From: Candidatus Altiarchaeota archaeon
GTDB lineage: Archaea; Altiarchaeota; Altiarchaeia; IMC4; SCGC-AAA252-I15
Direction of reading: 5' to 3'
Assembly (NCBI GenBank): GCA_028712125.1
Contig: JAQTQS010000001.1
Coordinates: 3,526-67,525 of the forward strand
DNA length: 64,000 nucleotides
A program made the translations under genes and the position numbers. The number at the start of each line of letters is the position of its first letter. Within the stretch, counting starts at the first letter, position 1. Shown here in pieces: positions 5,201 to 42,863 of the stretch. Under the pieces are notes generated by a model. That model saw nothing but the letters and a program-made list of their open reading frames with translations, made no database searches and was not told where the DNA came from.

Positions 5201-5515
5201 GTCGGCCCGGACTCCTGCGGCCGGAAGCATGCATATTCCATTGTAGACTGAGGTGAATCCGGGAGCTTCGAACGTTGGGTTTATGAGGAGGGCGCAGAAC
5301 AGCGATGAAACCAGGAATCCGTTGATTACCTTGATTATGGCAAGGGCTATCCATGCGAATATGACGCCCATGAACCCGATTACTGCGGATAGCAGGAGGC
5401 CCACGTATGTCGTCCATGGCAGTGCGAGCACCGTGGGCGGCAGGACTGATATGACGAACAACAATGTTAAGGCTAATGCTATGAACCGCCTTCCATTGCA
5501 ACCCTTTATTTTCAT
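2207..5515 (-). CDS. polytopic membrane protein (~10 TM helices at the N-terminus) with a ~430-aa Gly/Ala/Lys-rich low-complexity region and a ~250-aa acidic C-terminal tail; unknown family
   Basis: The start is assigned to ATG 5515-5513 (MKIKGC...), which overlaps the TGA stop of the upstream giant gene as ATGA. The track's earlier start at 5617 lies inside that upstream gene. The N-terminal third is hydrophobic with many predicted helices. The middle is repeats of GKALG/GKxxG type. The C-terminus is D/E/K/R-rich. Confidence 0.6.
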   Translation of the reverse strand: MKIKGCNGRRFIALALTLLFVISVLPPTVLALPWTTYVGLLLSAVIGFMGVIFAWIALAIIKVINGFLVSSLFCALLINPTFEAPGFTSVYNGICMLPAAGVRADALTNMIRLFLAIMYPMFLLALVFLGAYLVFMANSPPHRARAKQMLLKLLIGMVLASLSPIVYQVLLIVGGSLTDGVLNVIDVSIIPGAGTIRDRLIFAFTHNIMPFPDLWPPNEDMLRAFDMPKVMMAIIVLALTAVFWILAIMVAMFRYTATTFLGIIFPLTVSLYMFEFTRNAGRKMFKATFIFIFTPFIMAMWLACALALLPYTRSSSNYFSSLFLLILMSMMVSFSPLALSGMLNVIGGIITSAGQFVPGFWGTAMVAAGSLMQGKGASAMSMAAAKFSASKMLKGGKALMGAAVFGGKAGFVEAVKRPFSGIAKTVSRAASMASGMAGGTGRGMMFGMMGSSALTRGAASIGLGKALGDYASAKISGRGRAGAFGSMAYGMGKRGLSSVGKGFMGGGSLMKSAVSPFSPSAVAGRWSLLGRTGRVAGKALLRGQLGRALGIGLKAGFGRKIGGLMAKGLRFAAKVSIGKALGKVMEKATGGLITGRDMFQGLGKSIGDKISSLPAALMAKGRSIGALAGAAYAGGKMAVQSGLQASKAAIGKAWQGAKNLSIKGVGKTLGIGALALAAGAGLSLLMPATAAAATLAAGGLLASKTGRGAALRKVQTTAKAAWDMMKRTAMGRSVSALSRIESRKGLGQAIKTGVQHAARAAVHKALGDQEFGRYTDKLKGKGQFQSGGPVGKNRALIGSLARRAAQKALNLTDSQVAALEKRGGGARSRRESERSRNKINNVIDNKGEGFDKLKDGDKKELAYIAGIDTTQPGWEQQLKRDLGMQTQTGDMLEKSNDHFDKVRDGIDKTYSTGDYGEKFEDKSLANKSLREDAKTDGNKAETDRQLAQYETGGDRNAALEAASAEKEKNPVDWADRNGTIHHGMTEDTAKDLEKAGIQTRGELANMTDDQMDRMVRMSSDPAHGMSQNYTKDELSSMRDGAIEATTRSATQGEQSMMDRGMSADEIRDRRDKDRGLKDAILEGGGHRAPEREDFLTALEEER

Positions 5516-8500
5516 TTCTTCCCTTTCCACTCGTCCCACATGTCCTGGAAGTCCATCCGTCTGGCCTCGAAGAATCTGTAGGACATCAGGGCTAGGAACA
5601 CTACAATTATGACCCATGCATTCTCTAGCAGGTAGTCTAGGAAGTTCTTGTAAGCGACCTCGATTTCAAGCTCCTTTAAGGAGGTTTGGTAGCCGGCTTG
5701 CCCAGATGCCGGGCCGTATCCGAAGTAGTCTGCATTGAAGGTTATGCGCCTGCTTCGCTTTTCAATACAGGTCGGTGCCCGTATTATCTGCCCTATCGAG
5801 TATATGCCGGAATATTGGGTGTAGGGGAAGTTGAAGTCTAACTTATACCGTCCCATGCGGAGTTCGCTTCCATCGCATTGGTCTGTTCCAGTGACCCTGA
5901 AGCAGATGTGGGTGGGGGTTTCACTTACCGGCTCGACATCCAGTTCGACTGGGTGTCGCATGTACACGTTCTTCCAGACCGAGCCGACCGCCTCTGTAAT
6001 GTGGTCGTTGCCGCAGCTTAATGCCTGGCCGTCTTCAGTCCTGAACGGGTGTATTTCTATGTGCCTGAAGTCGCTGTATATCCGTAGGATTGAGTCCTCG
6101 AACTTCTCGGACTCTATGCTCTGTGTGCTGAAATTAAGCGTGTAGAGCTTTGTTTGGGGGCTGAATGCTATCTTGGAGGAGATGGCACTCTCCTCTTCGG
6201 CAACCTTTTTAAACTCGAATGTCTCGCTGCCCGAAGCCTGTTTTCCGCCCATGCTCGTTTCGGATTCTTGCAGGTCTTTCGGCTGGGAGTAGAAGCCCAC
6301 AAGGTCCCAGTATTTGGCTTCATCCTCGTGGAAGTTCCTGAACAGCCCGACCTGCTCCTTGGACGGGTCTTTGAACCATGTCCCGTCGTCGCATGTGAGC
6401 TGCACGTCCCAGCTGTAAGGCTCTCCTATAGCCATGAAGAATGTCCGCGTCTTGCCGTTCTTTTCCTGGATTCTGCCTTGTGTCCCGTAGTAGTATTTCT
6501 TGAAGGGGTTTATCATGTAGTGCCAGTAGTCTTCTGACCCTCCCTTGCATGGTTTGAGGAAAAGCATGTCCTGCATCTTGCTGTTTATCGTTATCACCTC
6601 TTTTGATATCGTCGAGTCGAGTATGTAGAGCTCGTGGATTGGCGGGTAATCCTTGGCTATGAAGTTCACCATTGTGGAATCCGGGACTACCATGTCAAAT
6701 CCGCCAATCAGGTCGTTTTGTCGGAGGTCAATAGAGCCTATGCGCAACGAGCCATTAACGCGGTATCTGCGATAGTCTGCGTCGCTTGGAGAGCCACCCC
6801 AGTTGTAGTCGATGAACCCGTACACATTCACGAATGCGTGAGAGCCGGGATTGCCCAGCGGACGGCTTGTTTCAAGGTGGCCGCCGTAGGGTTTGGCATA
6901 AACCGAGGAGGTGTCGTTGATTTCCTCAAGCGCGTCGGGTCTGGCTTGCTGAAAGCCGCCTAACGGGTCTTCGCTAGATACGGGGTAAGCACAGGGATTG
7001 TGAGTCCACGCACCCCAGCAATGGATGCACCCCCTCCACCGGTAAATTACCTGGCAATTGACGACTATTGGACCAGTTGGTGTGTTGTGAACCTCAGTGC
7101 CCAAATCCAGCGGATAGTTACAATTTTCCCATAGTATGCAGGTTCCGTTGGGATAGTACCCTGACGGGCAGCATGGGTAAGTACCTACCTCGCACTCCCC
7201 GCAGGGACTATCGCAATCCTTGTAATAAAAACCATTCATGGGAAATTCACCGTCATCACATAGTTTATAATAATCTATCCAATGGCAGTATTGGTATGCG
7301 TTACATCCGTACCAAAAGCATTCCTGGGCTAGCGGCTGTCGGATTATTGTATGGAGGGCCGAATAATTCATTGTAATTTGGAATGATGTGGTTTGGTCAT
7401 TCAGATTGTGAGTAAGCACACTCGCCCCAACATGCAAAAAGTTCCAAGGGGCTTCAAGCGGCAGGACGTTCGGCCCGGCTGGCATCTTGCCATTTGCGCC
7501 GGCGCCGCTGTTTTCGGATATCATATAGTCGAACCATGCAAGAACCGGATATGAGAGGTACTCAGGTTTCATTAACAGCTTCCTGCAGGACTTGCCGCAT
7601 GATTCTGGCGGTTCGGGGGTCTTCCCATCAGGATTTTGCAGTGCTCCATCGCAAACCCAGTATGGGTTTTCGCCGCTCTGGGGAGCTATACGATTCGTCC
7701 AATCGCCCGGACCGGTAAGGGTTGCGTAATTCGGGTAACAGTTGCAGCCTTCCAGGTTGCTGCACCAGTAATGCTGCGGCGTCCAGACATTACAACCGGT
7801 TGCACCATCAGGATTAGGGCCTGTTTGAGACCAGATATCATCGACAATGACATCCTCTCTGACCCGGTCGTTCCCAAGGTTCTTCGACTCGTCCCAGATG
7901 CCGCCTTGGTCGCGCATATAGTCCCATGCGTAGGGACATATCTGTGTGTTAAAGTATGAGCCGAAATCAGGATCTGAACTCATCCAACCGCCATCGTCAC
8001 AACCGCTTCCGATAAATTTCTGGCAGTACTCGGTGGCAGTGTATGTTCCTCCTGCTTCGGTCTCGTTCGGGAGGTTTCCTCCTGCTGCAAAGTGGAACCA
8101 TATGGGTCCGCCGCCGCGTTCTTTAACGCCGGACAGCGCATTCCCGCGCGTACGGGTGTAGATGGTTGCATCCTTTTGGATTACGGGAGTTCCCGGCGCC
8201 GGAACGCACTCTATCCCGTTCCACAAGAGGGCATCTGCCGGACAGCAAGCCTTGTTCCAGTTTCCGCATCCGCCAAAGCAGTGGACATAGGGATTTGCTG
8301 TACAATTCAGGCCAGGCATGCATTCGTCGTTGTTCCGGCAGCCGCCTTCAGCCTTGCCGCAACGGCAGTCATTCCCCCACCGGTTGCCGTTCTGTATCTT
8401 GTATCGGCAGTAGTCGTTATGGTGTATCTCCCTCTGATATACGCCGCACGTCTGGCAGCATCCGGCTGACGTATCCCAGGTGGTGCCGTCCTCGCAGCAG

Positions 8501-11172
8501 AAGTCCTCGCCCCAAATTGTGCCGTCGCAATGGCCGCTTATACATTTGGCGTCAAACCAGCCGCAGTCGCCGTGGCCGTTGCCGAGCATATCACCCTGGT
8601 TGTCGGTCTCAGCTGCGCATAAATTGTCTTTAGCTTCAAAGTCTGGTATTATGTGGAATTCAGGCGTCACCTTGAATACCATGTCCCAGAGCATCCTCTT
8701 GTTGAACTGGCGGTAGTACTTCAGCTCGGACCTAGTCTCGCCCTCGTTGAACGGGTCTATCCGCCACATGTCTCCGACAACCGTGGAACCGCCGGGATTG
8801 TGGTAATACAGCGGATCCTCGTCATTCCGCTTTAAATCGCCCTGATGGGCCGGCCGCGTAGCCTCGACCTTCGGTGCATTCCAATTTGTGGTCTTTGGGC
8901 TTACAAACCAGTAACGGTCGGTAGCAGCAGGGTCGAAATAATCGATAAGCCTGGGAGGGGACAGCTTCCAGTAGATTATGGGATTGTTGACGGTATTTTC
9001 TAAAGGCCATGCGGCGGGCGATCGCCAATCCGTGACTTTTGGATATTCCGTGTAATTGTAGATTCTGTTTTGCATCGTGTAGTTATACGTTGTGCCGCCG
9101 TGCCAAGGTCCTTGCGTATAGTAATCAACCGCACCGGCACAACCAGAGCTGGTTCCGTCACTGCTATTGCCCCATGGAATTAGGTAAAACTTAGTGGACC
9201 AGCAAGTATTCGGGCGGCAACCTAGGTTAAAGGCTAAACGATAGTCGAATCCTTTCCAGTGTACTGTCGAATGGTTCACAAACGACGCGCTGACGTTGGA
9301 GCTGATTGATTCTATCGACTCGTTGACGATGTGCTTTCGGTCTGGAATACCGAGCTCGAAGTCGAACGCCTTGTCGTCGTACTCCTCGTCAGTCCCGAAA
9401 AACCAGCTCAACCAGCCGCCCCTCTTCCACGGATTCCCGTTGTCATCCTCGTCGTCAATGTCGTTAAACTGGAAGTAGTCGGCTGTCATGCCGGGCGTTT
9501 CGGACGGATCCGGCTGCTCCCACTCGAAGTAACCGCACTTCTGGCTCATAAGCGGATTTCTGAGCGAGCTGTCCTGGAAGCCCATTTCGTAGGAGGCAGC
9601 AAGCGCGGCCCCATAGCTGCATGTGAAATTCCCGGGACCGCACTTGTCGCTCCAGAAGGCGTCTGAGTCTGTCCGGCAGCCGAGGAGCCTGCCCGCGGAC
9701 TTTAAATTCCAATCCCGGAGCGTATAGACGTTCGATTCCCGTATCCTTTGCAGGTCTGACGGGTTTACCATGTGGGTTGAGCCTCTCGACTGCATCGACG
9801 TGGTGTAGTAGTACATCAAGCCCAAGTTCGCGCCATGCCTGGATTTGTTCAACACGGTTATGTAAACCATGGGGAAGTCAAATAGCTTGCCGGCGTCGAT
9901 GGCTTCCCACTGGCAGTCATTAAAGCCGACGTCTTTAATCTGCGCATCGTAAGAGGTGGATGTGGTGGTCCATTGGAGGCGAACGTTTTTGCACATGTTT
10001 GTAACGTTCACGTTGTAAGGCAGGTCGCAAGCGCGCACAAGTATGTAATCCATGCAGTAGTCGTAGTACCCCTCGTCGGTTGGCGTCCCGACCCCCGTGA
10101 CCGGGTTGACGCAACCCTGGGGGGTGTTCCGGCAGGCGTCCATGGCAGCGGCGATGTCCTTGCGGACATCGATTAACTCCCTGTCATCAACCGCTATGGG
10201 CGAGTAAACCCCATCAACAACGGTCAGGTTCAGGTACTCGCTTGGGAGCGTCCCATCTTCATAGGCCCGGTCTACCTTCATCAGGACCAGATACCTCTTC
10301 GGCTCGTCCTCCTCGCTGGAGCGGGCGCAATAGGGTACGTAATCGTTCTCGATGGCAGTCTTCCTGTCGCGGTTGGCGGCATTGTCCTCGCAGTAGCTGG
10401 CGCTATAGGTGAACTGGACTTCATCGTCGGTAATGCCGGTAACCTCTCCGCATTCGATGGTGCCGTCGTTACAAACCTTGACTGCGCGTATGTAACTCTT
10501 GAAGCTGTCCGGAGAAACTGGCATCGGGTCGTGGTCGACATCGAAGCCCATCGTCCCGCGCCCAAGCAACTTGCCCATTTTGCTGACGTTCAGACGCACA
10601 TACCAGACTGTCCCGCCGGCCCCGGCGCCGGACTCGCTCGGCGGGTCGACCGACCCGCGGAATCCGTCAACGTAATCCGGCACGTATTCGGGCGGCTTGC
10701 CATTGCACGTGTCTTTCATGGGGGCGCAGCAGCACAATGATTTCTTGAACGATCCCTCGTACTCGCCTGCCATGCAGCTTGCATCCCCGTTAATGTCGTG
10801 CATCCAGCCTTCGGGGCACATGAATTCCGACTTGTCGTCGCTGTTGGAGTAGATGCACTCCCCCCCGTCAGCGTCCGGGTCCATCGGGTCGTCCAACGTG
10901 GACCTGACGCAAGTCCCGTCTCCGCTCGCGTCGCACGTGAGGAAATCACAGCACTTCGCATCCGGCGGAAAGTCGGGCAGATTCTGGCAGAAGTCGTTGC
11001 CATCCGGCATCTCCCGCTGGCAGTACACGCCGCAGTCCCCGGGCTGGCAGTCCGGGCTTATACTTTCCGGCAGCGATTCATCGCACGGTGTCTGGGCGCT
11101 AGCGATTTGACATGCTGCGAGAAGGAGACCGGCTATTGCAAGGAAGGCGATTGACAGTTTCCGTGCATTCAT
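5512..11172 (-). CDS. giant (1886 aa) secreted cysteine-rich surface protein with a C-terminal TM anchor; unknown family
   Basis: The N-terminal signal peptide is MNARKLSIAFLAIAGLLLAACQIASA. There are over 100 Cys in clustered C-x-C / CC motifs, and the protein is Trp/Tyr/Asn/Asp-rich with many N-x-S/T sequons. The C-terminus has one hydrophobic helix (AWVIIVVFLALMSY) followed by a basic tail. The ORF is uninterrupted. Confidence 0.7.
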   Translation of the reverse strand: MNARKLSIAFLAIAGLLLAACQIASAQTPCDESLPESISPDCQPGDCGVYCQREMPDGNDFCQNLPDFPPDAKCCDFLTCDASGDGTCVRSTLDDPMDPDADGGECIYSNSDDKSEFMCPEGWMHDINGDASCMAGEYEGSFKKSLCCCAPMKDTCNGKPPEYVPDYVDGFRGSVDPPSESGAGAGGTVWYVRLNVSKMGKLLGRGTMGFDVDHDPMPVSPDSFKSYIRAVKVCNDGTIECGEVTGITDDEVQFTYSASYCEDNAANRDRKTAIENDYVPYCARSSEEDEPKRYLVLMKVDRAYEDGTLPSEYLNLTVVDGVYSPIAVDDRELIDVRKDIAAAMDACRNTPQGCVNPVTGVGTPTDEGYYDYCMDYILVRACDLPYNVNVTNMCKNVRLQWTTTSTSYDAQIKDVGFNDCQWEAIDAGKLFDFPMVYITVLNKSRHGANLGLMYYYTTSMQSRGSTHMVNPSDLQRIRESNVYTLRDWNLKSAGRLLGCRTDSDAFWSDKCGPGNFTCSYGAALAASYEMGFQDSSLRNPLMSQKCGYFEWEQPDPSETPGMTADYFQFNDIDDEDDNGNPWKRGGWLSWFFGTDEEYDDKAFDFELGIPDRKHIVNESIESISSNVSASFVNHSTVHWKGFDYRLAFNLGCRPNTCWSTKFYLIPWGNSSDGTSSGCAGAVDYYTQGPWHGGTTYNYTMQNRIYNYTEYPKVTDWRSPAAWPLENTVNNPIIYWKLSPPRLIDYFDPAATDRYWFVSPKTTNWNAPKVEATRPAHQGDLKRNDEDPLYYHNPGGSTVVGDMWRIDPFNEGETRSELKYYRQFNKRMLWDMVFKVTPEFHIIPDFEAKDNLCAAETDNQGDMLGNGHGDCGWFDAKCISGHCDGTIWGEDFCCEDGTTWDTSAGCCQTCGVYQREIHHNDYCRYKIQNGNRWGNDCRCGKAEGGCRNNDECMPGLNCTANPYVHCFGGCGNWNKACCPADALLWNGIECVPAPGTPVIQKDATIYTRTRGNALSGVKERGGGPIWFHFAAGGNLPNETEAGGTYTATEYCQKFIGSGCDDGGWMSSDPDFGSYFNTQICPYAWDYMRDQGGIWDESKNLGNDRVREDVIVDDIWSQTGPNPDGATGCNVWTPQHYWCSNLEGCNCYPNYATLTGPGDWTNRIAPQSGENPYWVCDGALQNPDGKTPEPPESCGKSCRKLLMKPEYLSYPVLAWFDYMISENSGAGANGKMPAGPNVLPLEAPWNFLHVGASVLTHNLNDQTTSFQITMNYSALHTIIRQPLAQECFWYGCNAYQYCHWIDYYKLCDDGEFPMNGFYYKDCDSPCGECEVGTYPCCPSGYYPNGTCILWENCNYPLDLGTEVHNTPTGPIVVNCQVIYRWRGCIHCWGAWTHNPCAYPVSSEDPLGGFQQARPDALEEINDTSSVYAKPYGGHLETSRPLGNPGSHAFVNVYGFIDYNWGGSPSDADYRRYRVNGSLRIGSIDLRQNDLIGGFDMVVPDSTMVNFIAKDYPPIHELYILDSTISKEVITINSKMQDMLFLKPCKGGSEDYWHYMINPFKKYYYGTQGRIQEKNGKTRTFFMAIGEPYSWDVQLTCDDGTWFKDPSKEQVGLFRNFHEDEAKYWDLVGFYSQPKDLQESETSMGGKQASGSETFEFKKVAEEESAISSKIAFSPQTKLYTLNFSTQSIESEKFEDSILRIYSDFRHIEIHPFRTEDGQALSCGNDHITEAVGSVWKNVYMRHPVELDVEPVSETPTHICFRVTGTDQCDGSELRMGRYKLDFNFPYTQYSGIYSIGQIIRAPTCIEKRSRRITFNADYFGYGPASGQAGYQTSLKELEIEVAYKNFLDYLLENAWVIIVVFLALMSYRFFEARRMDFQDMWDEWKGKK

Positions 11173-15197: not shown

Positions 15198-15261
15198 TTT
15201 TTCTTTCTTTGAACCCAAGGGCCTTTCTTTCTTTTTTCGCAAAAAAGAAAGAAAGGGGCTT
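15198..15261. repeat. 64-nt direct repeat, copy 1 (the tRNA 3' trailer); copy 2 is 15324-15387 inside the intron
   Basis: tttttctttctttgaacccaagggc[c/a]tttctttcttttttcgcaaaaaagaaagaaaggggctt occurs twice, 126 bp apart, and the copies are identical except for one substitution. Copy 1 abuts the tRNA discriminator base and supplies a T-tract on the minus strand, which looks like a terminator. Confidence 0.85.
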
Positions 15262-15305
15262 GCGGGGGACGAGGTTCGAACTCGCGCAGGCCTTCGCCAC
15301 AGGAT

Positions 15306-15387
15306 AACTTAAGTTCCTTGGGTTTTTTCTTTCTTTGAACCCAAGGGCATTTCTTTCTTTTTTCGCAAAAAAGAAAGAAAGGGGCTT
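15306..15387 (-). other. tRNA-Leu intron (82 nt) containing two hairpins
   Basis: The interruption falls between anticodon-loop positions 37 and 38. The intron holds the perfect 16-bp inverted repeat CCTTTCTTTCTTTTTT-GCG-AAAAAAGAAAGAAAGG and a second hairpin CCTTGGGTT...AACCCAAGG. Confidence 0.6.
15324..15387. repeat. 64-nt direct repeat, copy 2 (the core of the tRNA-Leu intron)
   Basis: See copy 1. This copy forms the 5' two-thirds of the intron. Confidence 0.85.
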
Positions 15388-15448
15388 CCTAAGTCCTGCT
15401 CATTTGACCAACTCTGACACCCCCGCGTAAGTAAAATTGGGATGTTCC

Positions 15449-15460: not shown

Positions 15461-15818
15461 GGACTTCATATTATAGGGATTCCAGTGAATAAAAGCCTAT
15501 TACGAGGCTTCTGTATGCGTTTTTTCGTTTTCCAAGCCCGCTGGTTTGGGTTGGAGTATCAAGCACTGTGCTTGATACTAAGGAGAATCAAACACCCTGC
15601 TTGATTCTCCTCTTTCAGCCTTTTCAGTAAGGTATTTAGACAACGAAAAATAGAAGACGCAAGCCCTAAAAACAAAAAAACGTCTACATGCCCTGTTGAA
15701 TCCTTACTCTGAGAAAGCCAAAACCTATCAAGAGGCTAGGTTGCACCAGAACAAACAAACGACTTACAGAAACAAACGAAAGGGCTTGACGTTGTATCCG
15801 GTTGGGTGTACATTAATC

Positions 15819-16464: not shown

Positions 16465-17040
16465 TTAGCTTTTGGTTGAATCCGGGCTTGAACCGTGCTT
16501 TGTTTTTGATTCTAGGCTTGAATCGCCTTGAAAATATGAGGCGATTTTATCTTGAACCGTTCGCCTAGTAAAAGTCGCACCGTATTCTTGATAATGCTCT
16601 AAATTATCCCAGTTGGTGACAACAAAGAAGTAATCAGCATAATTCCCTAAGACAACCATCTTAGGCATAAGCTCTTTTTCGCTTTTTCGGGTGGCTTCGA
16701 CCTCCACAGCTATCCAGCGACCTTCATCCAAACCGAATGTAACGTCCGGTAATCTCGTAAGATTGTATTCTACCTTAGGAGTGTATTTCCGAATCTCGTC
16801 GTATATTATGTTCCAAAGGATGAAATGGGCGTCCGACTCGCCAGTCTCATTCCTTACCAGAAAAGCAGTCCCATTGCCTTGAGAAAACCCCGGATCCCGG
16901 ACTTCATGAAAACCCAGACTTTTAAGTATGTCAAGCCGGACCTTATTCAACTCACTCTTAACATGAATCTTCCGCTCTGTATTAAACCGCGTATGGTCTA
17001 TACCTGCTATCCTCGCCATAAATATAACACTAGACGACAA
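16465..17040 (-). CDS. hypothetical protein, possible PD-(D/E)xK nuclease fold
   Basis: DVTFGLDEGRWIAVEVEATRK gives a D...EVE..K spacing like restriction-endonuclease-like cores. This is a weak assignment. Confidence 0.3.
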   Translation of the reverse strand: MSSSVIFMARIAGIDHTRFNTERKIHVKSELNKVRLDILKSLGFHEVRDPGFSQGNGTAFLVRNETGESDAHFILWNIIYDEIRKYTPKVEYNLTRLPDVTFGLDEGRWIAVEVEATRKSEKELMPKMVVLGNYADYFFVVTNWDNLEHYQEYGATFTRRTVQDKIASYFQGDSSLESKTKHGSSPDSTKS

Positions 17041-17168: not shown

Positions 17169-17747
17169 ATGGGAAATAATATGCAAATAGCATGTTTGGG
17201 TTGGGGCTCTCTAGTTTGGGATCCTAGGGAACTGCCCATAAGAGGGATATGGTTTGAAGACGGCCCCTTCTTACCGATTGAATATGCACGACAATCCAAA
17301 GACGGGAGAATCACTCTTGTTATTGTTGAGGGTAGAACCTTAGTTCGTTCTTTGTGGACACTCCTCAATTGCAACGATTTAACTGGAGCAAAAAAAGCAT
17401 TAGCAGATAGAGAAGGGATAAAAGAGGATGATATCCCTAAAGATATTGGCTTTTGGCCTAGTGATGATAAGAAAAGCGGTAAATGTACTGATTCCATACC
17501 TTTGTGGGCTAAATCTCACTCTCTTGATGCAGTTGTATGGACAAACTTACCCCCTAGATTTGATGGCATAAATGGCAAAATACCAACTGTAGACGAAATA
17601 CTAAATTACTTTAACAGTAGTCTAATGCCAATAGAAAAAAGACGTCTTGCGGAGGAGTATATTACGAAAACCCCGCCCCAAATAGATACAGAATATAGAA
17701 GGGAGATGATATTAAGATTAAACTGGATAACTCGGCGTACGTGTTAA
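17169..17747 (+). CDS. hypothetical protein, ChaC/gamma-glutamylcyclotransferase-like N-terminus
   Basis: IACLGWGSLVWDP resembles the ChaC/GGCT motif (FGYGSLMW). This is a weak assignment. Confidence 0.3.
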   Translation: MGNNMQIACLGWGSLVWDPRELPIRGIWFEDGPFLPIEYARQSKDGRITLVIVEGRTLVRSLWTLLNCNDLTGAKKALADREGIKEDDIPKDIGFWPSDDKKSGKCTDSIPLWAKSHSLDAVVWTNLPPRFDGINGKIPTVDEILNYFNSSLMPIEKRRLAEEYITKTPPQIDTEYRREMILRLNWITRRTC

Positions 17748-17841: not shown

Positions 17842-19392
17842 TTGCTATTTAGGTGTGGTGTGGGTCTGAAAGAATTAGGGGCTTCGGGGAGTAACTCTGT
17901 GGATTCTGGTGTAGAGAGGCGTATCCCAAATTTTAAGCTTGTAACTGTTATCTTATTTTTGTTATTTTCATTAGCTGTTCTATTCGCTATTCTGTTGTCT
18001 TATTTTATTTCATCTGATCTTGGAGATGTGGTGTTGGTAGTGTTTATATCATTGTTTCTATTACTCGCCATACCCGGTAGTGCTATTATCATTATAAGTT
18101 ATATCATAAGAGAGATTGTAAGAGAGAGAAGATTTGAAAAAGAACGAAAAGCAAAAGGATTAGTTAATTTTTGGGGTAAGTGGGGAACTCCAAAAGAGGT
18201 TGAAGAGTGGCGAAGGCAAGAGCAAGATAAACAACAAAAACAAAAAGAAACAATGGGGCTTGACATTGACATCATAGACAATACTGACGATATTCCCTTG
18301 AGGATTGAAAAGGCTCATGAAATATTAGAAAAATATTCTTCTGAACAACCGTATATTAAAGGTTTTGCAGAGAAGTATTACGATAGGATAGAGCAGTATA
18401 TTGATGATATTGGACATAATAAGATATTCCATAAAAGATGGTACCTTGATAAAATTAAAAGTTATGATAAGCAGAAATCCAAGAAAAATAAATGGGATAA
18501 CTGGGAGAAGTCCTTGATTGCGTCTAATAAAAAGGAATATCTCAAGGCTATTGAATTATGTTCAAATCCGTTGGAGATTCTTTTTCATTCTAATCCCCTG
18601 CCTTTCTATGTTAATGAAGAAACAACATCGTATAACGAAAAAAAATCGTATGAAGACAATGAATCATACTATAATGCTGAGCATCTGCGAGGGGAATTAT
18701 TAAAGTTACATCTGCTGCTACAAAATAAAGGATTTGATATTAATTACCACGATTTAGGGTTACTACTGCATTTCCAATTTCTAAATGCAGGGGCGAAACA
18801 ACTGTGGGATAAATTGAAATCTTACAACCCCTCTACATTTGATGATTATATTGATGCGTTTTTGGAGTATTATGGTGAATCCTATCTGCGGAAGACTACT
18901 CCATTTATAGTACTGCTGAGTTCAAAAGGTCTACCGTGTGACGATGAAATAGTGATTCTTGCATTAATGAATAAACATGACGAAGACGACCTCAAACAAC
19001 TTGAAAAATCGTTACTTTCTCGAAATAAAACAGTAAATATGTCTGAAATTGATGCATTATCTGGACACGAATTTGAGAGATTTCTAGGGCGGTTATTTGA
19101 TAAAATGGGTTACAAGGTGACTATAACCCCTAAATCGGGTGATTATGGAGCGGATTTGATACTCGAAAAACACGGTGAAAAGACTGCAGTACAGGCTAAA
19201 AAATGGGGCGGCAACATAGGAATTGAAGCGATACAACAGGTTGTGACATCTAAGAAGTTTTATGATTGCGATAAGGCTATGGTTGTTGGAACTAGCATCT
19301 ACTCAAAAAATGCCGAAGAATTGGCTTTTAGGAATAAGATAGAACTTGTTGACAGGGACAAACTACAGCGATTGATAGAGAAATACATGTAA
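17842..19392 (+). CDS. membrane-anchored protein with a C-terminal Mrr-type restriction endonuclease catalytic domain (Mrr_cat)
   Basis: There are two N-terminal TM helices. The C-terminal ~130 aa read HEFERFLGRLFDKMGYKVTITPKSGDYGADLILEKHGEKTAVQAKKW, which matches Mrr_cat on the D and QxK motifs. The middle ~300 aa are Lys/Asp-rich with no assignment. Confidence 0.6.
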   Translation: MLFRCGVGLKELGASGSNSVDSGVERRIPNFKLVTVILFLLFSLAVLFAILLSYFISSDLGDVVLVVFISLFLLLAIPGSAIIIISYIIREIVRERRFEKERKAKGLVNFWGKWGTPKEVEEWRRQEQDKQQKQKETMGLDIDIIDNTDDIPLRIEKAHEILEKYSSEQPYIKGFAEKYYDRIEQYIDDIGHNKIFHKRWYLDKIKSYDKQKSKKNKWDNWEKSLIASNKKEYLKAIELCSNPLEILFHSNPLPFYVNEETTSYNEKKSYEDNESYYNAEHLRGELLKLHLLLQNKGFDINYHDLGLLLHFQFLNAGAKQLWDKLKSYNPSTFDDYIDAFLEYYGESYLRKTTPFIVLLSSKGLPCDDEIVILALMNKHDEDDLKQLEKSLLSRNKTVNMSEIDALSGHEFERFLGRLFDKMGYKVTITPKSGDYGADLILEKHGEKTAVQAKKWGGNIGIEAIQQVVTSKKFYDCDKAMVVGTSIYSKNAEELAFRNKIELVDRDKLQRLIEKYM

Positions 19393-19460
19393 CTGTATAT
19401 AGAACCGTTATAGAGTAGTTGGTTTTGTTGTCCTTGTCGTTTTTATAGTCGTGTGTCCAC

Positions 19461-19913
19461 GTGTGTACGTGGAAGATGAGCAAGAATGCGCCTAGCAACC
19501 GGGTTAATGAGCTTCGTATTGAGAAGTTGTTCTTACGCAGGGGCTTGGTTGAGAAATTTGAGTCCAAACGGCTTCTGGGGCTTGAGGATTTTGTTTCCTT
19601 CATCTGGCACAACCACCCTAATTACGTTTCTGAGATTACCTTGGAGTTCTTGAAAGAGCTTATTGTATACCGTCGGGAGGGCAAACCCTATACCCAGGAT
19701 GATTGGGTTAGGTTTTGCGGTAGGATGAGTAGTAGCAAGAGCAGCAGGGACATTGTCTTTCGTAAGCTCCTGTATCTTGGCTTGATTGAGAAGCATAATA
19801 AGACTCTCATGCGGTATGAGGTTAGGTTAAGCGACAAGTGGATTAACTACCTAGATTATATGGCTCAGAGCTGGATAGCGATTTGCGAGAATGAACCGAA
19901 GGTCAAACGATAG
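19461..19913 (+). CDS. uncharacterised winged-helix-like family protein (paralogue 1 of 4)
   Basis: It carries the family motifs: an N-terminal W..(D/E)F(I/V)..(I/F)..P block and a C-terminal (K/R)LLYLGLIEKHNKT block, shared with 19891, 20264 and 41409. Confidence 0.45.
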   Translation: MCTWKMSKNAPSNRVNELRIEKLFLRRGLVEKFESKRLLGLEDFVSFIWHNHPNYVSEITLEFLKELIVYRREGKPYTQDDWVRFCGRMSSSKSSRDIVFRKLLYLGLIEKHNKTLMRYEVRLSDKWINYLDYMAQSWIAICENEPKVKR

Positions 19914-20301
19914 CGTATTCATGAAGGATGAGGTCTTTAGGAGGGCTGACGAGAAGCAGCAGATTAGGCTCTGGGAGTTCATGCAACTGTTCTTCCCGGA
20001 AGAAACTAACAAGAAGCAGTTCGAATGCGCATTCACGTTCATGAAAACGCTCTTGGAAGCCAAAAGCGTTGAAAGCACCGGATTAAGGGATATTGTCGAG
20101 TCGGACTATGTGAACCTTACGACTATCGTACTGCCGAAGCTGGAGAAATTCGGCTTAATCAGGGTTACCGGCGAGCGGGGCAAGGGCAAAACCTATAAAA
20201 TAGAGCTGGACAAAATCTTTTCAGACCGGATACGATACATGGGCTTGGAATGGTTCAGAATTTATGCTAAATACGGTGATGTCTATGGTGGGCAATCATG
20301 A
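19891..20301 (+). CDS. uncharacterised winged-helix-like family protein (paralogue 2 of 4)
   Basis: IVLPKLEKFGLIRVTGERGKGKTYKIEL matches the family. It overlaps the preceding gene by 23 bp. Confidence 0.45.
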   Translation: MNRRSNDSVFMKDEVFRRADEKQQIRLWEFMQLFFPEETNKKQFECAFTFMKTLLEAKSVESTGLRDIVESDYVNLTTIVLPKLEKFGLIRVTGERGKGKTYKIELDKIFSDRIRYMGLEWFRIYAKYGDVYGGQS

Positions 20302-20851
20302 GGGCAAGGGCATACCCTCAAGGCATGCCCTATATTTCCCGGAAAAAGGAGGACGCAAGTATGGAACCAAAATATGGGACTACTCCTACCGCTGGAACAT
20401 TGACGACTTACTGGGGTTCGTGTTCCCTGGTGAATTCAGCCCAGTATGCCATAAAATAGCAGTAGACTACCTGGAATACCTGGTTGAAAAAGGCGAAGTA
20501 ACCTACCAAGACAAAGTCGAATTCTGCAACCAACACAATTACAGCATAAACACGCTCAACAAACACATAATACCCAAACTATACCGATTCGGACTGATTC
20601 ACAGGACCAGGGAATTCCCTAAAACCACAGCTTGGAATATCAAAAGCAAAAGACGAAGCTATGAACACGAAAGCCAGCAATTCAGCTCATTCCTAAGGAA
20701 AATAGCAGACGAATGGGAAGCCATACTCAACACCGGAAGACTTAAAAGAAAACACGAAAACCAAAAACAAAAAGAAACACAAAAAGAAATCGAAAAACAA
20801 GAAAAACAGGACTGGGAACGATGGGAAAAGGAACGGGCTTTAGGATGTTAA
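20264..20851 (+). CDS. uncharacterised winged-helix-like family protein (paralogue 3 of 4) with a Lys/Glu-rich C-terminal tail
   Basis: WNIDDLLGFVFPGEFSPVCHKIAVDYL...NKHIIPKLYRFGLIHRTREF aligns along most of its length with the 41409 ORF. Confidence 0.5.
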   Translation: MLNTVMSMVGNHEGKGIPSRHALYFPEKGGRKYGTKIWDYSYRWNIDDLLGFVFPGEFSPVCHKIAVDYLEYLVEKGEVTYQDKVEFCNQHNYSINTLNKHIIPKLYRFGLIHRTREFPKTTAWNIKSKRRSYEHESQQFSSFLRKIADEWEAILNTGRLKRKHENQKQKETQKEIEKQEKQDWERWEKERALGC

Positions 20852-20891
20852 TATTAGATTACCACGCTTCTGAATATACCCAACGTGTTTT

Positions 20892-21146
20892 TTATTCTTC
20901 TGAACGTAATACGCCGGTTTCTCCTAAAAACTTTTTATCCGAATCATCTAAAGGCTTTTTCTTCAGCAATTTTTTAATAATTCCCTTCAACTCCACATTC
21001 TCCTGTTCTAAACTGCGACTGTGACTTAAAGCTTCTTCAGTTTTCTTTTTTTGCTGAATATACCCCCAAGGTGTCCCATCCATAAAATATTTATTATATC
21101 CATGACATATAAGCTTAAACGACAAAAATCGAGCTTCCACAAACAC
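20892..21146 (-). CDS. hypothetical small protein with coiled-coil character
   Basis: The ORF lies at the right edge of the island and has a Lys/Glu-rich heptad-like stretch. Confidence 0.3.
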   Translation of the reverse strand: MFVEARFLSFKLICHGYNKYFMDGTPWGYIQQKKKTEEALSHSRSLEQENVELKGIIKKLLKKKPLDDSDKKFLGETGVLRSEE

Positions 21147-21338
21147 CTTGCTTGATTCTTCCCTGAAAAGAAGTAGATTAAAACACCTTGCTTGATAGTC
21201 CGATAGGAGAAAAAGTAGTCTTGACGTTGAACCTAGCCGTGGTGGACGTCCGGTACGCCACTGGCGCTGTGGTATTGTGTGTTTTTTTGGGTGTCTTAGT
21301 ATATGAAACAGACGAATAAATATACTATTGCAGCAGGG

Positions 21339-41408: not shown

Positions 41409-41948
41409 TTGTTGCTTTTTAATAGTATCCTGATGGCAAGAGGGGGGAATCCCAATCCACGGCCGCCTTCCAGCGGGGGCATTCCGTCGGGCGAGAGCCT
41501 GTGGCTGCCTTCGCACTACGGCAGGGACGTTAAAGCGAAGGGGGGTTTGGACAAGACCGTGTTCTGGAACGTTTCGGACGTCTTGGACTTCATTTTTCCG
41601 AAAAAGTACCAGCCGACCTACCATGCGGTCTCCTGCAAGCTGATGGATTTAATATTGACGAAGGGCTATGTAGGCAAGAAGGACATCGGCAAGTTCATGA
41701 AGGACAACGCGGTCAGCAAGTCCACGCTGGAGAACAAGGTCATACCCAAGCTCGTAAGGCTCGGATTGCTGAAGCGCGAACGGGAGTTCAAGGCGGGCCT
41801 TGGCAAGGGGCGGGGGCTGGTCTTGTCCGAGTCTTTGACTTTCACGGCGTATCTGGACAGGGTGGGGTTCGCGTGGAACATGCTCGTATCGACAGCCCGG
41901 AAGAGGAAGCAGGATGACGCGATGGAGGGGCAACAGCTCACTCTTTAG
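41409..41948 (+). CDS. uncharacterised winged-helix-like family protein (paralogue 4 of 4; outside the island)
   Basis: TVFWNVSDVLDFIFPKKYQPTYHAVSCKLMDLILTKGYVGKKDIGKF...NKVIPKLVRLGLLKREREF aligns with the 20264 ORF. The true start may be at M9. Confidence 0.5.
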   Translation: MLLFNSILMARGGNPNPRPPSSGGIPSGESLWLPSHYGRDVKAKGGLDKTVFWNVSDVLDFIFPKKYQPTYHAVSCKLMDLILTKGYVGKKDIGKFMKDNAVSKSTLENKVIPKLVRLGLLKREREFKAGLGKGRGLVLSESLTFTAYLDRVGFAWNMLVSTARKRKQDDAMEGQQLTL

Positions 41949-42543
41949 AATCTCCGCTCTTTTTCAGCTTGCTGATTCTCGCCTCAAGCTCGATTAATTC
42001 CTTCTGTTTCTGGGTCATGATTTCGCCGTAGCTGTTTTCGTCTATCTCGCCGCTTACGCGCTTGCGCTTGGTTATTTGTATGATATCGTCTATGTCGCGC
42101 TTTTTCGCATCAAGCACGGTAAGATCGGACGCCGCGGATTTTCGTATCGTGGACTCAAGCCGGTCCCAGTACAATCGCTTGGTATACTGCTCGCGCATGG
42201 TGGCCTTGGAGTCCTCGGCGACCTTCTGCGAGCTCACGGCGGCAATCTCGCTTTTTTCGGGTATCTTCTTTGCCGGCTCGATGTGCTCCTCGTGCATGCT
42301 GACGTATTCCGCAAGCTTGCTCTTGTAACGCGCAGCCTCCTCTTTCAGGCGCAGATTATCCTTCTGCAGCTTGTAGGAGTACGCGAACAACAGGATAAGA
42401 AGCAGCCCGACCGCGGCTACGGGGAGCATGCCCGGCGGGATGGAAGACATGACGGCTTCCGGGTCCAATGCGCTCACACTGCCGGCAAATGCGATGGACA
42501 GGAACGGCAACGACAGTATATGCGTAATGTTATGCCTCATCAT
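41938..42543 (-). CDS. hypothetical membrane protein with a SHOCT-like C-terminal domain
   Basis: It has a signal/TM segment, a coiled-coil, and the C-terminal RVSGEIDENSYGEIMTQKQKELIELE, which is like the SHOCT short C-terminal domain. Confidence 0.35.
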   Translation of the reverse strand: MMRHNITHILSLPFLSIAFAGSVSALDPEAVMSSIPPGMLPVAAVGLLLILLFAYSYKLQKDNLRLKEEAARYKSKLAEYVSMHEEHIEPAKKIPEKSEIAAVSSQKVAEDSKATMREQYTKRLYWDRLESTIRKSAASDLTVLDAKKRDIDDIIQITKRKRVSGEIDENSYGEIMTQKQKELIELEARISKLKKSGDSKE

Positions 42544-42863
42544 TGCTGCGGCTCGGATGTCTCAGCCGGCTCCCTGCGGTCTTCCGATGCCTTGTCAAGC
42601 TGCCGGACCAATCCCTCAAGCTCGTGCGCTATGTCCATTCCCTTGTCGGTCAGCTCGACGATTTTAGTCCGGCCCTCCTTCTTGAAGCGCACTACGCCGA
42701 ACTCCTGCATCTGGTTCAGTACTTTTAGTATGTGAGTGTAGGTGCAGTTGGTCTCCTTGGCGAGTACCGACGCGTATTTGCCCTTCGAACCCTTCAGGCT
42801 TAGAATGACGCCTGCCGGCTTTTCATGGAGTATCAGATTCGCCATGCCCTTTATTGCTTCCAT
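42540..42863 (-). CDS. winged-helix transcriptional regulator (ArsR/MarR-like)
   Basis: This 107-aa protein has an HTH (ASVLAKETNCTYTHILKVLNQMQEFGVV) followed by a wing. The C-terminus is acidic. Confidence 0.55.
   Translation of the reverse strand: MEAIKGMANLILHEKPAGVILSLKGSKGKYASVLAKETNCTYTHILKVLNQMQEFGVVRFKKEGRTKIVELTDKGMDIAHELEGLVRQLDKASEDRREPAETSEPQQ

Follow-up and report, generated by a model that had tools for sequence, protein, structure and literature searches.

A small family of predicted winged-helix proteins in Altiarchaeota with three overlapping paralogues behind a conserved promoter and a core chromosomal relative

A stretch of 64,000 nucleotides (nt) from a Candidatus Altiarchaeota archaeon (contig JAQTQS010000001.1, positions 3,526 to 67,525 of the forward strand), which we call the window, carries four small genes, named A, B, C and D here, that encode divergent members of one protein family. 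A, B and C overlap one another and form a cassette behind a promoter of their own, and D stands alone in another part of the window. The four are confirmed as real conserved genes, and their products are true paralogues. This homology, the predicted fold, the conservation of the cassette and of its promoter, and the variable location of the cassette are directly supported by the results below. With slightly more confidence than doubt, we propose that A to D form a lineage-restricted family of small winged helix-turn-helix (wHTH) proteins that would bind DNA, and that A, B and C would work together as a hetero-oligomeric regulator of their own synthesis.

The four open reading frames (ORFs) had been described in an earlier note on this DNA, which was made from the sequence alone, and all of them are present in the window where that note had placed them. 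Alignment with homologues moved three of the start codons, that of A from 19461 to 19476 (MSKNAPSNR, 15 homologues), that of C from 20264 to 20285 (MVGNH) and that of D from 41409 to 41433 (MARGGNP). All four genes lie on the plus strand. With the corrected starts A occupies positions 19476–19913 and encodes 145 amino acids, B occupies 19891–20301 (136 amino acids), C 20285–20851 (188 amino acids) and D 41433–41948 (171 amino acids); the overlap between A and B amounts to 23 nt and that between B and C to 17 nt. Each ORF has dozens of full-length homologues at 50–89% identity. The homologues of C number 50, at 55–87% identity, and B was aligned with 17. The public protein P0245 is identical to A of the window.

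The relationship between the four proteins was examined by direct and by profile comparison. BLASTP aligned C with D at 31% identity across 157 amino acids (E value 1.7e-27), in agreement with the earlier alignment of the proteins then assigned to 20264 and 41409. It also connected B with C (E 1.5e-5) and with D (E 3e-4). The match between A and B was marginal (E 0.08), and direct comparison of A with C and with D gave no match. For the profile comparison, families were assembled from 50 clusters of C homologues and 112 clusters of D homologues, and for A, B and C from 30-odd related loci. With these family alignments hhalign gave a probability of 99.9% for C and D, of 97.6% for B and D (B against C and D combined, E 5e-12), of 97.2% for B and C (E 3e-11) and of 94.5–94.7% for A and B (E 6–8e-8). 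The value for A and D was 71% and that for A and C just 9%. A is the weakest member, joined to the family via B, which links it to C and D, and via its predicted structure rather than by direct similarity to C.

The profile alignments are collinear over 100–150 columns and pair with each other the two sequence blocks that the earlier note had recognized in all four ORFs. Real profile pairs scored 36–75, whereas reversed and column-shuffled target alignments scored 10–23. Moreover, matches of hidden Markov models across the families occur again at every related locus. The missing BLASTP matches of A to C and D and the E value of 0.08 between A and B might suggest that the similarity is due to chance or to low complexity, a concern already raised for the shared blocks, or that the ORFs are not genes. 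The full-length homologues of each ORF, the profile scores far above the controls and the confident, congruent structure models refute this explanation, to which we assign practically no probability. The shared blocks reflect true homology.

Structures of C and A were predicted using AlphaFold2 with an alignment of 127 C and D sequences for C and of 21 sequences for A. The model of C reached a predicted local distance difference test (pLDDT) score of 89. It starts with an extended N-terminal arm bearing the GIPS/FPEKGGRK sequence, continues with helix 53–69, the short strand 71–72, helices 74–84 and 88–102, strand 105–109, a wing loop and strand 125–129, and ends in a long helix (132–185), the charged C-terminal helix of approximately 55 residues. 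The model of A (pLDDT 75) contains helix 53–67, strand 72–73, helices 74–84 and 88–101 and strands 104–108 and 114–118, that is, the same elements in the same order at nearly equal positions. Beyond these shared elements A has three N-terminal helices and a C-terminal helix that is shorter than that of C. The wHTH topology H1-(b1)-H2-H3-b2-wing-b3 is present in both models, which, together with the structural matches given below, bears out the earlier description of the proteins as winged-helix-like. The first of the two shared blocks corresponds to a short helix with an "FP" cap before H1, and the second to the end of the recognition helix and the first wing strand. Conservation is highest in the block IPKLxRFGLIxRxR, which falls on the recognition helix H3 and on b2 and the wing.

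A Foldseek search of the PDB with the model of C gave TFE-alpha of P. furiosus (6xjf_B) as the top match, with an E value of 9e-4 and template modelling (TM) scores of 0.37 for the query and 0.62 for the target. It was followed by HsmR/MarR, AbfR2 (Lrs14), TFIIE-alpha, PadR and RPC82. For A the top matches were MarR and ArsR/SmtB regulators (best E 6e-3) and not TFE. In both cases the matches were wHTH proteins nearly throughout, and those at the top all bind DNA. Judged by its predicted structures, the family belongs firmly to the wHTH class and to no specific named family within it.

Sequence searches agree with this assignment. None of the four proteins had a significant match in Pfam (scanned without entry PF27297), NCBIfam, PHROGs or PADLOC, and a combined profile of C and D retrieved nothing significant from the PDB sequences. 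Echoes of Lrs14, Sta1, MarR and TrmB were observed below threshold over the recognition helix and the wing. The best scores for MarR, PadR, TrmB and Lrs14 all stayed below the cut-off; Lrs14 reached E 0.063 (13 bits versus 90 needed), and TrmB reached E 0.004 on one homologue of A (17.5 bits versus a cut-off of 25.6). None of the proteins matches the Orc1/Cdc6 wing (Cdc6_C) or contains an AAA+ domain. A match to a named family such as TrmB or Orc/Cdc6, which the earlier note had listed as a possible refutation, was thus not found in these libraries. The remark of the note that the family cannot be assigned to any named domain holds for B, C and D and has to be modified for A, which is linked to the Pfam entry PF27297 (AF_0843) of unknown function. 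A-type proteins including P0245 bear precomputed PF27297 matches. The A profile aligned with a PF27297-bearing protein of 125 amino acids from locus L007 with an hhalign probability of 97.2% (E 4e-11, 33% identity over 98 columns), and phmmer gave an E value of 1e-11. B, C and D have no precomputed Pfam match, and the cassette is not explained by PF27297, an entry of unknown function whose likeness is confined to subfamily A. A literature search for AF_0843, and for Altiarchaeota or DPANN archaea in combination with winged helix, found nothing relevant.

The family shares several properties with the MarR, PadR, Lrs14 (AbfR) and ArsR/SmtB regulators, which are among the top structural matches of C and A: a length of 100–190 amino acids, a wHTH core with the most conserved block on its recognition helix and beta-hairpin wing, a terminal helix suited to dimerization, and a dyad or repeat element beside the gene's own promoter. 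It differs from them by the lack of a significant Pfam or NCBIfam match, by the conserved extended N-terminal arm (GIPSxxxLxFP...), which these regulators do not have, and by the charged single helix at the C-terminus of C. In addition, three divergent paralogues are arranged in one overlapping operon instead of a single gene for a homodimeric regulator. The wHTH fold is familiar, as is the general logic in which the gene of a small wHTH protein carries the operator for this protein at its promoter. New are the family itself, annotated so far only via the function-unknown Pfam entry that touches subfamily A, its conserved N-terminal arm, and the occurrence of three divergent paralogues in an overlapping, promoter-bearing unit at unrelated sites.

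All named relatives in the C and D clusters derive from metagenome-assembled genomes of Candidatus Altiarchaeota or Altiarchaeales, and they alone would assign the window almost certainly to this lineage. C is carried by only 5 GTDB species genomes, and an exhaustive profile search of 1.84 billion representative proteins yielded only 75 matches. The family is very small. Named divergent members were found in Candidatus Micrarchaeota and in Aenigmatarchaeota. They show the N-terminal "RGIPSxxxLxLP" arm, the motifs "W..D..F(I/V)FP" and "STxYNxV(I/L)PKLxRxG" and, within the C-terminal helix, a conserved Trp. These DPANN members are single genes, and no conserved neighbour was found around them.

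Many Altiarchaeota that possess D lack A-B-C. The region downstream of D is conserved in three other Altiarchaeota genomes, and the block is also found in the window. In the other genomes it comprises a convergent KaiC-like ATPase (PF06745), a membrane/coiled-coil protein of approximately 185–200 amino acids and a wHTH protein of approximately 110 amino acids, and it extends to Csl4 in two genomes and to AdoHcy hydrolase in one. The corresponding part of the window (41938–42863, minus strand) encodes a membrane/coiled-coil protein of approximately 200 amino acids and a wHTH protein of 107 amino acids (HTH_27, DUF6293_C-like), with equivalents in loci L005 and L006; the KaiC-like ATPase between D and this pair is missing from the window. 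The 5' neighbour of D varies and is the divergently transcribed ThiI in the window. D, the solo paralogue of C, belongs to the core genes of the chromosome and lies in a block of conserved synteny, and the earlier picture of a tandem overlapping trio with a chromosomal relative is supported.

These properties of D have to be considered together with the structural matches of C. The family might provide accessory basal-transcription or chromatin factors rather than gene-specific regulators, with D as a DPANN-wide core factor containing an extended winged helix like that of TFE-alpha/TFIIE-alpha and A-B-C as an alternative multi-subunit version. D is single-copy, core and syntenic in Altiarchaeota, single relatives occur in Micrarchaeota and Aenigmatarchaeota, and the conserved N-terminal arm might serve for docking to other proteins. 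Among single structures, C is matched best by TFE-alpha, whose winged helix has additional helices; TFIIE-alpha, Tfa1, the RNA polymerase-TFE complex of T. kodakarensis and RPC82 also appear in the Foldseek list of C. Furthermore, TFIIE and Pol III C82/C34 are multi-winged-helix hetero-oligomers, as is proposed for A-B-C. However, the TM scores are low, and the match is hardly better than those to the regulators MarR, PadR and Lrs14. No sequence match to TFIIE or TFE was detected in Pfam or the PDB, the family alignments contain no Cys pairs, and the C-terminus is a single helix without a zinc ribbon. A-B-C is also too patchy for such a role, with C in 5 GTDB species genomes and 50 clusters versus 112 of D. 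We regard a basal-transcription or chromatin role as distinctly unlikely.

The cassette itself is strongly conserved. A-B-C forms a conserved unit in at least 14 loci, and those that bear a name are all from Candidatus Altiarchaeota. Wherever the upstream sequence of a locus is long enough, the order A-B-C is kept, and in each of the 14 loci measured neighbouring genes share 4–50 nt. Approximately 50 base pairs (bp) 5' of A are conserved in 15 of 15 aligned loci, and the DNA further upstream is unrelated. This segment contains a TATA box (TTTTTATA, 19440–19447, plus strand), whose TTTTTAT is invariant in the same 15 loci. The start codon of A follows 25–32 nt past the TATA box. The extended TATA motif occurs once in the window (0.07 expected). 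Three GT-rich boxes (GTGTG..GTGTG..GTGG, 19450–19472, plus strand) follow and represent a candidate operator; both GTGTG boxes are conserved in the 15-locus alignment, and the third box is GT(G/T)G. In the window they include the dyad CCACGT-GTGT-ACGTGG (19457–19472). The GT-box pattern occurs once in the 64 kilobases (kb), with 0 occurrences expected, and in the 10 loci that match it exactly it is found once per locus, always at the cassette promoter. An interpretation of this dyad as a hairpin in the RNA was discarded, because the element is located 3–25 nt past the TATA box, mostly upstream of the expected start site, and because conservation extends to the direct GTGTG boxes but not to the perfect dyad. 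A scan for sigma-70 promoters and terminators was uninformative for this archaeal sequence.

Nothing 3' of the C stop codon is conserved between the loci. Consequently, the conserved or mobile unit extends from the TATA box to the stop codon of C. A T-run approximately 37 nt downstream of this stop (20888–20893, plus strand) is a possible archaeal terminator. In loci L030 (2445–2555), L031 and L032 an identical 3' flank with a GC-rich hairpin (GAAGAACCCCACAGCAAGTTGTGGGGCATCC...) was found after C. The metagenome locus L013 (264–1068) contains a tandemly doubled B in the order A-B-B-C, with copies that differ from one another and are 59% and 79% identical to B of the window. A separate clade of C genes stands alone; the upstream region of these solo-C genes is likewise conserved, is unlike that of the cassette and contains its own palindrome TCGAC-AA-GTCGA.

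Archaeal promoters usually have a distance of approximately 26 nt from the centre of the TATA box to the start site. From this spacing and the distance between TATA box and ATG, the cassette mRNA would be leaderless or nearly so, with a start site predicted approximately 0–8 nt ahead of the ATG, and the GT boxes would cover the region where archaeal repressors typically block the recruitment of the polymerase. The gene overlaps of 4–50 nt suggest translational coupling. In MarR, PadR and Lrs14-type regulators the equivalent C-terminal helix mediates dimerization. Such a helix is present in both models, and hetero-oligomerization via the C-terminal helices is proposed for A, B and C.

The regulator model that we favour can be outlined as follows. 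A, B, C and D are four subfamilies of one Altiarchaeota family, to which distant single-copy members are known elsewhere among the DPANN archaea. In each protein the predicted wHTH core is preceded by the conserved N-terminal arm and followed by a C-terminal helix in which a Trp is conserved. D is the core chromosomal copy and A-B-C a self-contained operon. A strong promoter of its own would produce a nearly leaderless A-B-C mRNA, from which the three proteins would be made together through translational coupling of the overlapping genes. Their C-terminal helices would most likely join them into a hetero-oligomer. Bound to the GT-rich boxes, which separate the TATA box from the start site, this complex would repress its own promoter, and it would probably act on further targets outside the window. 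Sequence-specific binding through H3 and the wing is suggested indirectly by the position of the most conserved block on H3 and b2 and by the operator-like element at the cassette promoter. In line with a regulator, neither an enzymatic domain nor a recurrent partner gene was found.

Several observations weigh against this proposal. The structural matches are weak (best E 9e-4, TM 0.37/0.62) and support only the broad wHTH class, some members of which are not DNA-binding. In a regulon search covering the window and the related loci the GT-box motif was found nowhere but at the cassette promoter, and no regulon was identified. The perfect dyad of the window is not kept in all loci, and instead of an operator the GT boxes might constitute normal elements of a core promoter or initiator. 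In a bolder version of the regulator model, A, B and C would be obligate partners in a winged-helix hetero-oligomer, possibly a heterotrimer. Their portable cassette, which would carry and regulate its own promoter, would move from one variable or defence island of Altiarchaeota to another, and D would be a DPANN-wide TFE-like basal-transcription factor and not an ordinary repressor. We regard this version as distinctly improbable.

The surroundings of the cassette differ from locus to locus. Its neighbours are unrelated across the loci and rich in restriction-modification, nuclease, toxin and ATPase genes. Outside the window they include restriction-modification methylases, GmrSD, PLD-SNF2, PDDEXK, Fic/DOC with a helix-turn-helix (HTH), AAA_14-DUF4143 and MJECL32/33. 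Directly upstream of the cassette in the window and on the same strand (17842–19392, plus strand) lies a gene for a 516-amino-acid protein with N-terminal transmembrane segments, a long charged middle part and a C-terminal Mrr_cat domain (Pfam E 7e-31); PADLOC matches this protein to the nuclease end of ZorD and PDC-S02. An HTH-Fic/DOC protein of 396 amino acids is encoded directly 3' of C and convergent to it in L024 (3737–4927, minus strand) and L029 (6543–7733, minus strand). It was the only neighbour found more than once directly abutting the cassette.

These surroundings raise the possibility that the cassette serves defence or mobile islands as a module for regulation or sensing, which would switch neighbouring restriction, toxin or defence genes on and off, or that it is itself part of a new defence system. 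In line with this, the neighbours are repeatedly of defence or mobile type, as is the Mrr_cat nuclease in the window, the G+C content of the cassette is constant at 0.43–0.49 regardless of the flanks, and the window copy resides in a low-GC, tRNA-adjacent island with flanking direct repeats. A fixed effector is not apparent, as no neighbour recurs, and PADLOC gave no match for the cassette proteins. In the window and the loci the GT-box motif is restricted to the cassette's own promoter, and at some loci the neighbours are ordinary metabolic genes. We consider a defence module rather unlikely.

Small wHTH proteins act as centromere-binding or copy-control proteins on archaeal plasmids. The earlier note had suggested replication/partition proteins, and the three proteins could accordingly maintain an integrated plasmid or virus through partition, replication or copy control. 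The location of the cassette varies between genomes, and in L001 it adjoins homologues of genes from the M. jannaschii extrachromosomal element. On the other hand, a combined profile of C and D and a profile of A retrieved no relatives from IMG/VR viral contigs, C had no match among PLSDB plasmids or the GenBank phages of INPHARED, and the BFVD structures gave no significant match. Neither a ParA, a Rep nor an integrase gene was linked to the cassette in any locus examined, and the paralogue D is a core chromosomal gene. As partners such as an ATPase or Rep are lacking and homologues were not found on viruses or plasmids, the replication/partition proposal is not borne out, and we judge a maintenance function to be very unlikely. 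The related idea of element-encoded regulators with a host-encoded relative fared better in part: D is chromosomal and a regulatory role is plausible, but no viral or plasmid relatives were found in these searches.

In the window the cassette is located at the right end of a low-GC segment (approximately 15.4–21.3 kb, G+C content 0.33–0.46 versus approximately 0.55). An intron-containing tRNA-Leu(UAG) gene (15261–15426, minus strand) lies exactly at the left edge of this island; it was missed by the default tRNA scan and was found by ARAGORN only when introns were allowed. The mature tRNA comprises 84 nt, and the intron of 82 nt interrupts the anticodon loop between positions 39 and 40. A direct repeat of 25 nt (CAAACACCYTGCTTGATTCT...) brackets the island on the plus strand with one left copy (15589–15613) and two right-hand copies (21140–21164 and 21180–21204). 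Three matches were obtained in the window versus 0.01 expected, and the repeat is absent from all other loci. The copies may be att-like scars; no integrase gene lies between them. The mobile island postulated earlier therefore has some support from the low G+C content, the tRNA-Leu gene at its edge and the direct repeats, but no integrase is present. The cassette is not tied to this island, since its promoter and three genes sit as a unit in unrelated neighbourhoods elsewhere.

Further features of the region were noted. A hairpin-forming sequence of 64 nt is present inside the tRNA-Leu intron (15324–15387) and, 98% identical, just 3' of the tRNA gene (15198–15261). Possible explanations are a small mobile element with a hairpin and a terminator that has been duplicated. 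When the island was scanned with Rfam, the only matches were spurious microRNA ones on this hairpin repeat. Two island ORFs (16465–17040, minus strand, 191 amino acids; 17169–17747, plus strand, 192 amino acids) match no Pfam or PADLOC family, and the product of the former contains an E-V-E...K stretch that, on reading, resembles a PD-(D/E)xK nuclease motif. Between the cassette and the right direct repeat lies an ORF of 84 amino acids (20892–21146, minus strand), the C-terminal part of which resembles a coiled coil; at the equivalent position L003 and L004 carry a minus-strand ORF of 66 amino acids without annotation. Outside the island, a very large Cys-rich secreted or surface protein of 1886 amino acids is encoded at 5512–11172 (minus strand); it begins with a signal-like segment and ends in a membrane anchor.

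Cultivation of Altiarchaeota, as of other DPANN archaea, has barely succeeded or not at all, and annotation is lacking for most of the genes specific to these lineages. The present analysis divides a compact family into four subfamilies, gives its diagnostic motifs, its confidently predicted fold and the conserved promoter, and offers an annotation handle for approximately 200 "hypothetical proteins". With three proteins and one 40-bp promoter, the cassette would also allow hetero-oligomeric wHTH regulation in archaea to be tested on a small system. If the proteins merely represent another family of autoregulated repressors, the result is a useful annotation without surprise. If the cassette truly moves as a unit among defence islands, it bears on the regulation of archaeal variable regions. 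Should the bolder version with a portable hetero-oligomeric cassette and a TFE-like D hold true, it would amount to a lineage-specific layer of transcription control without counterpart in model archaea.

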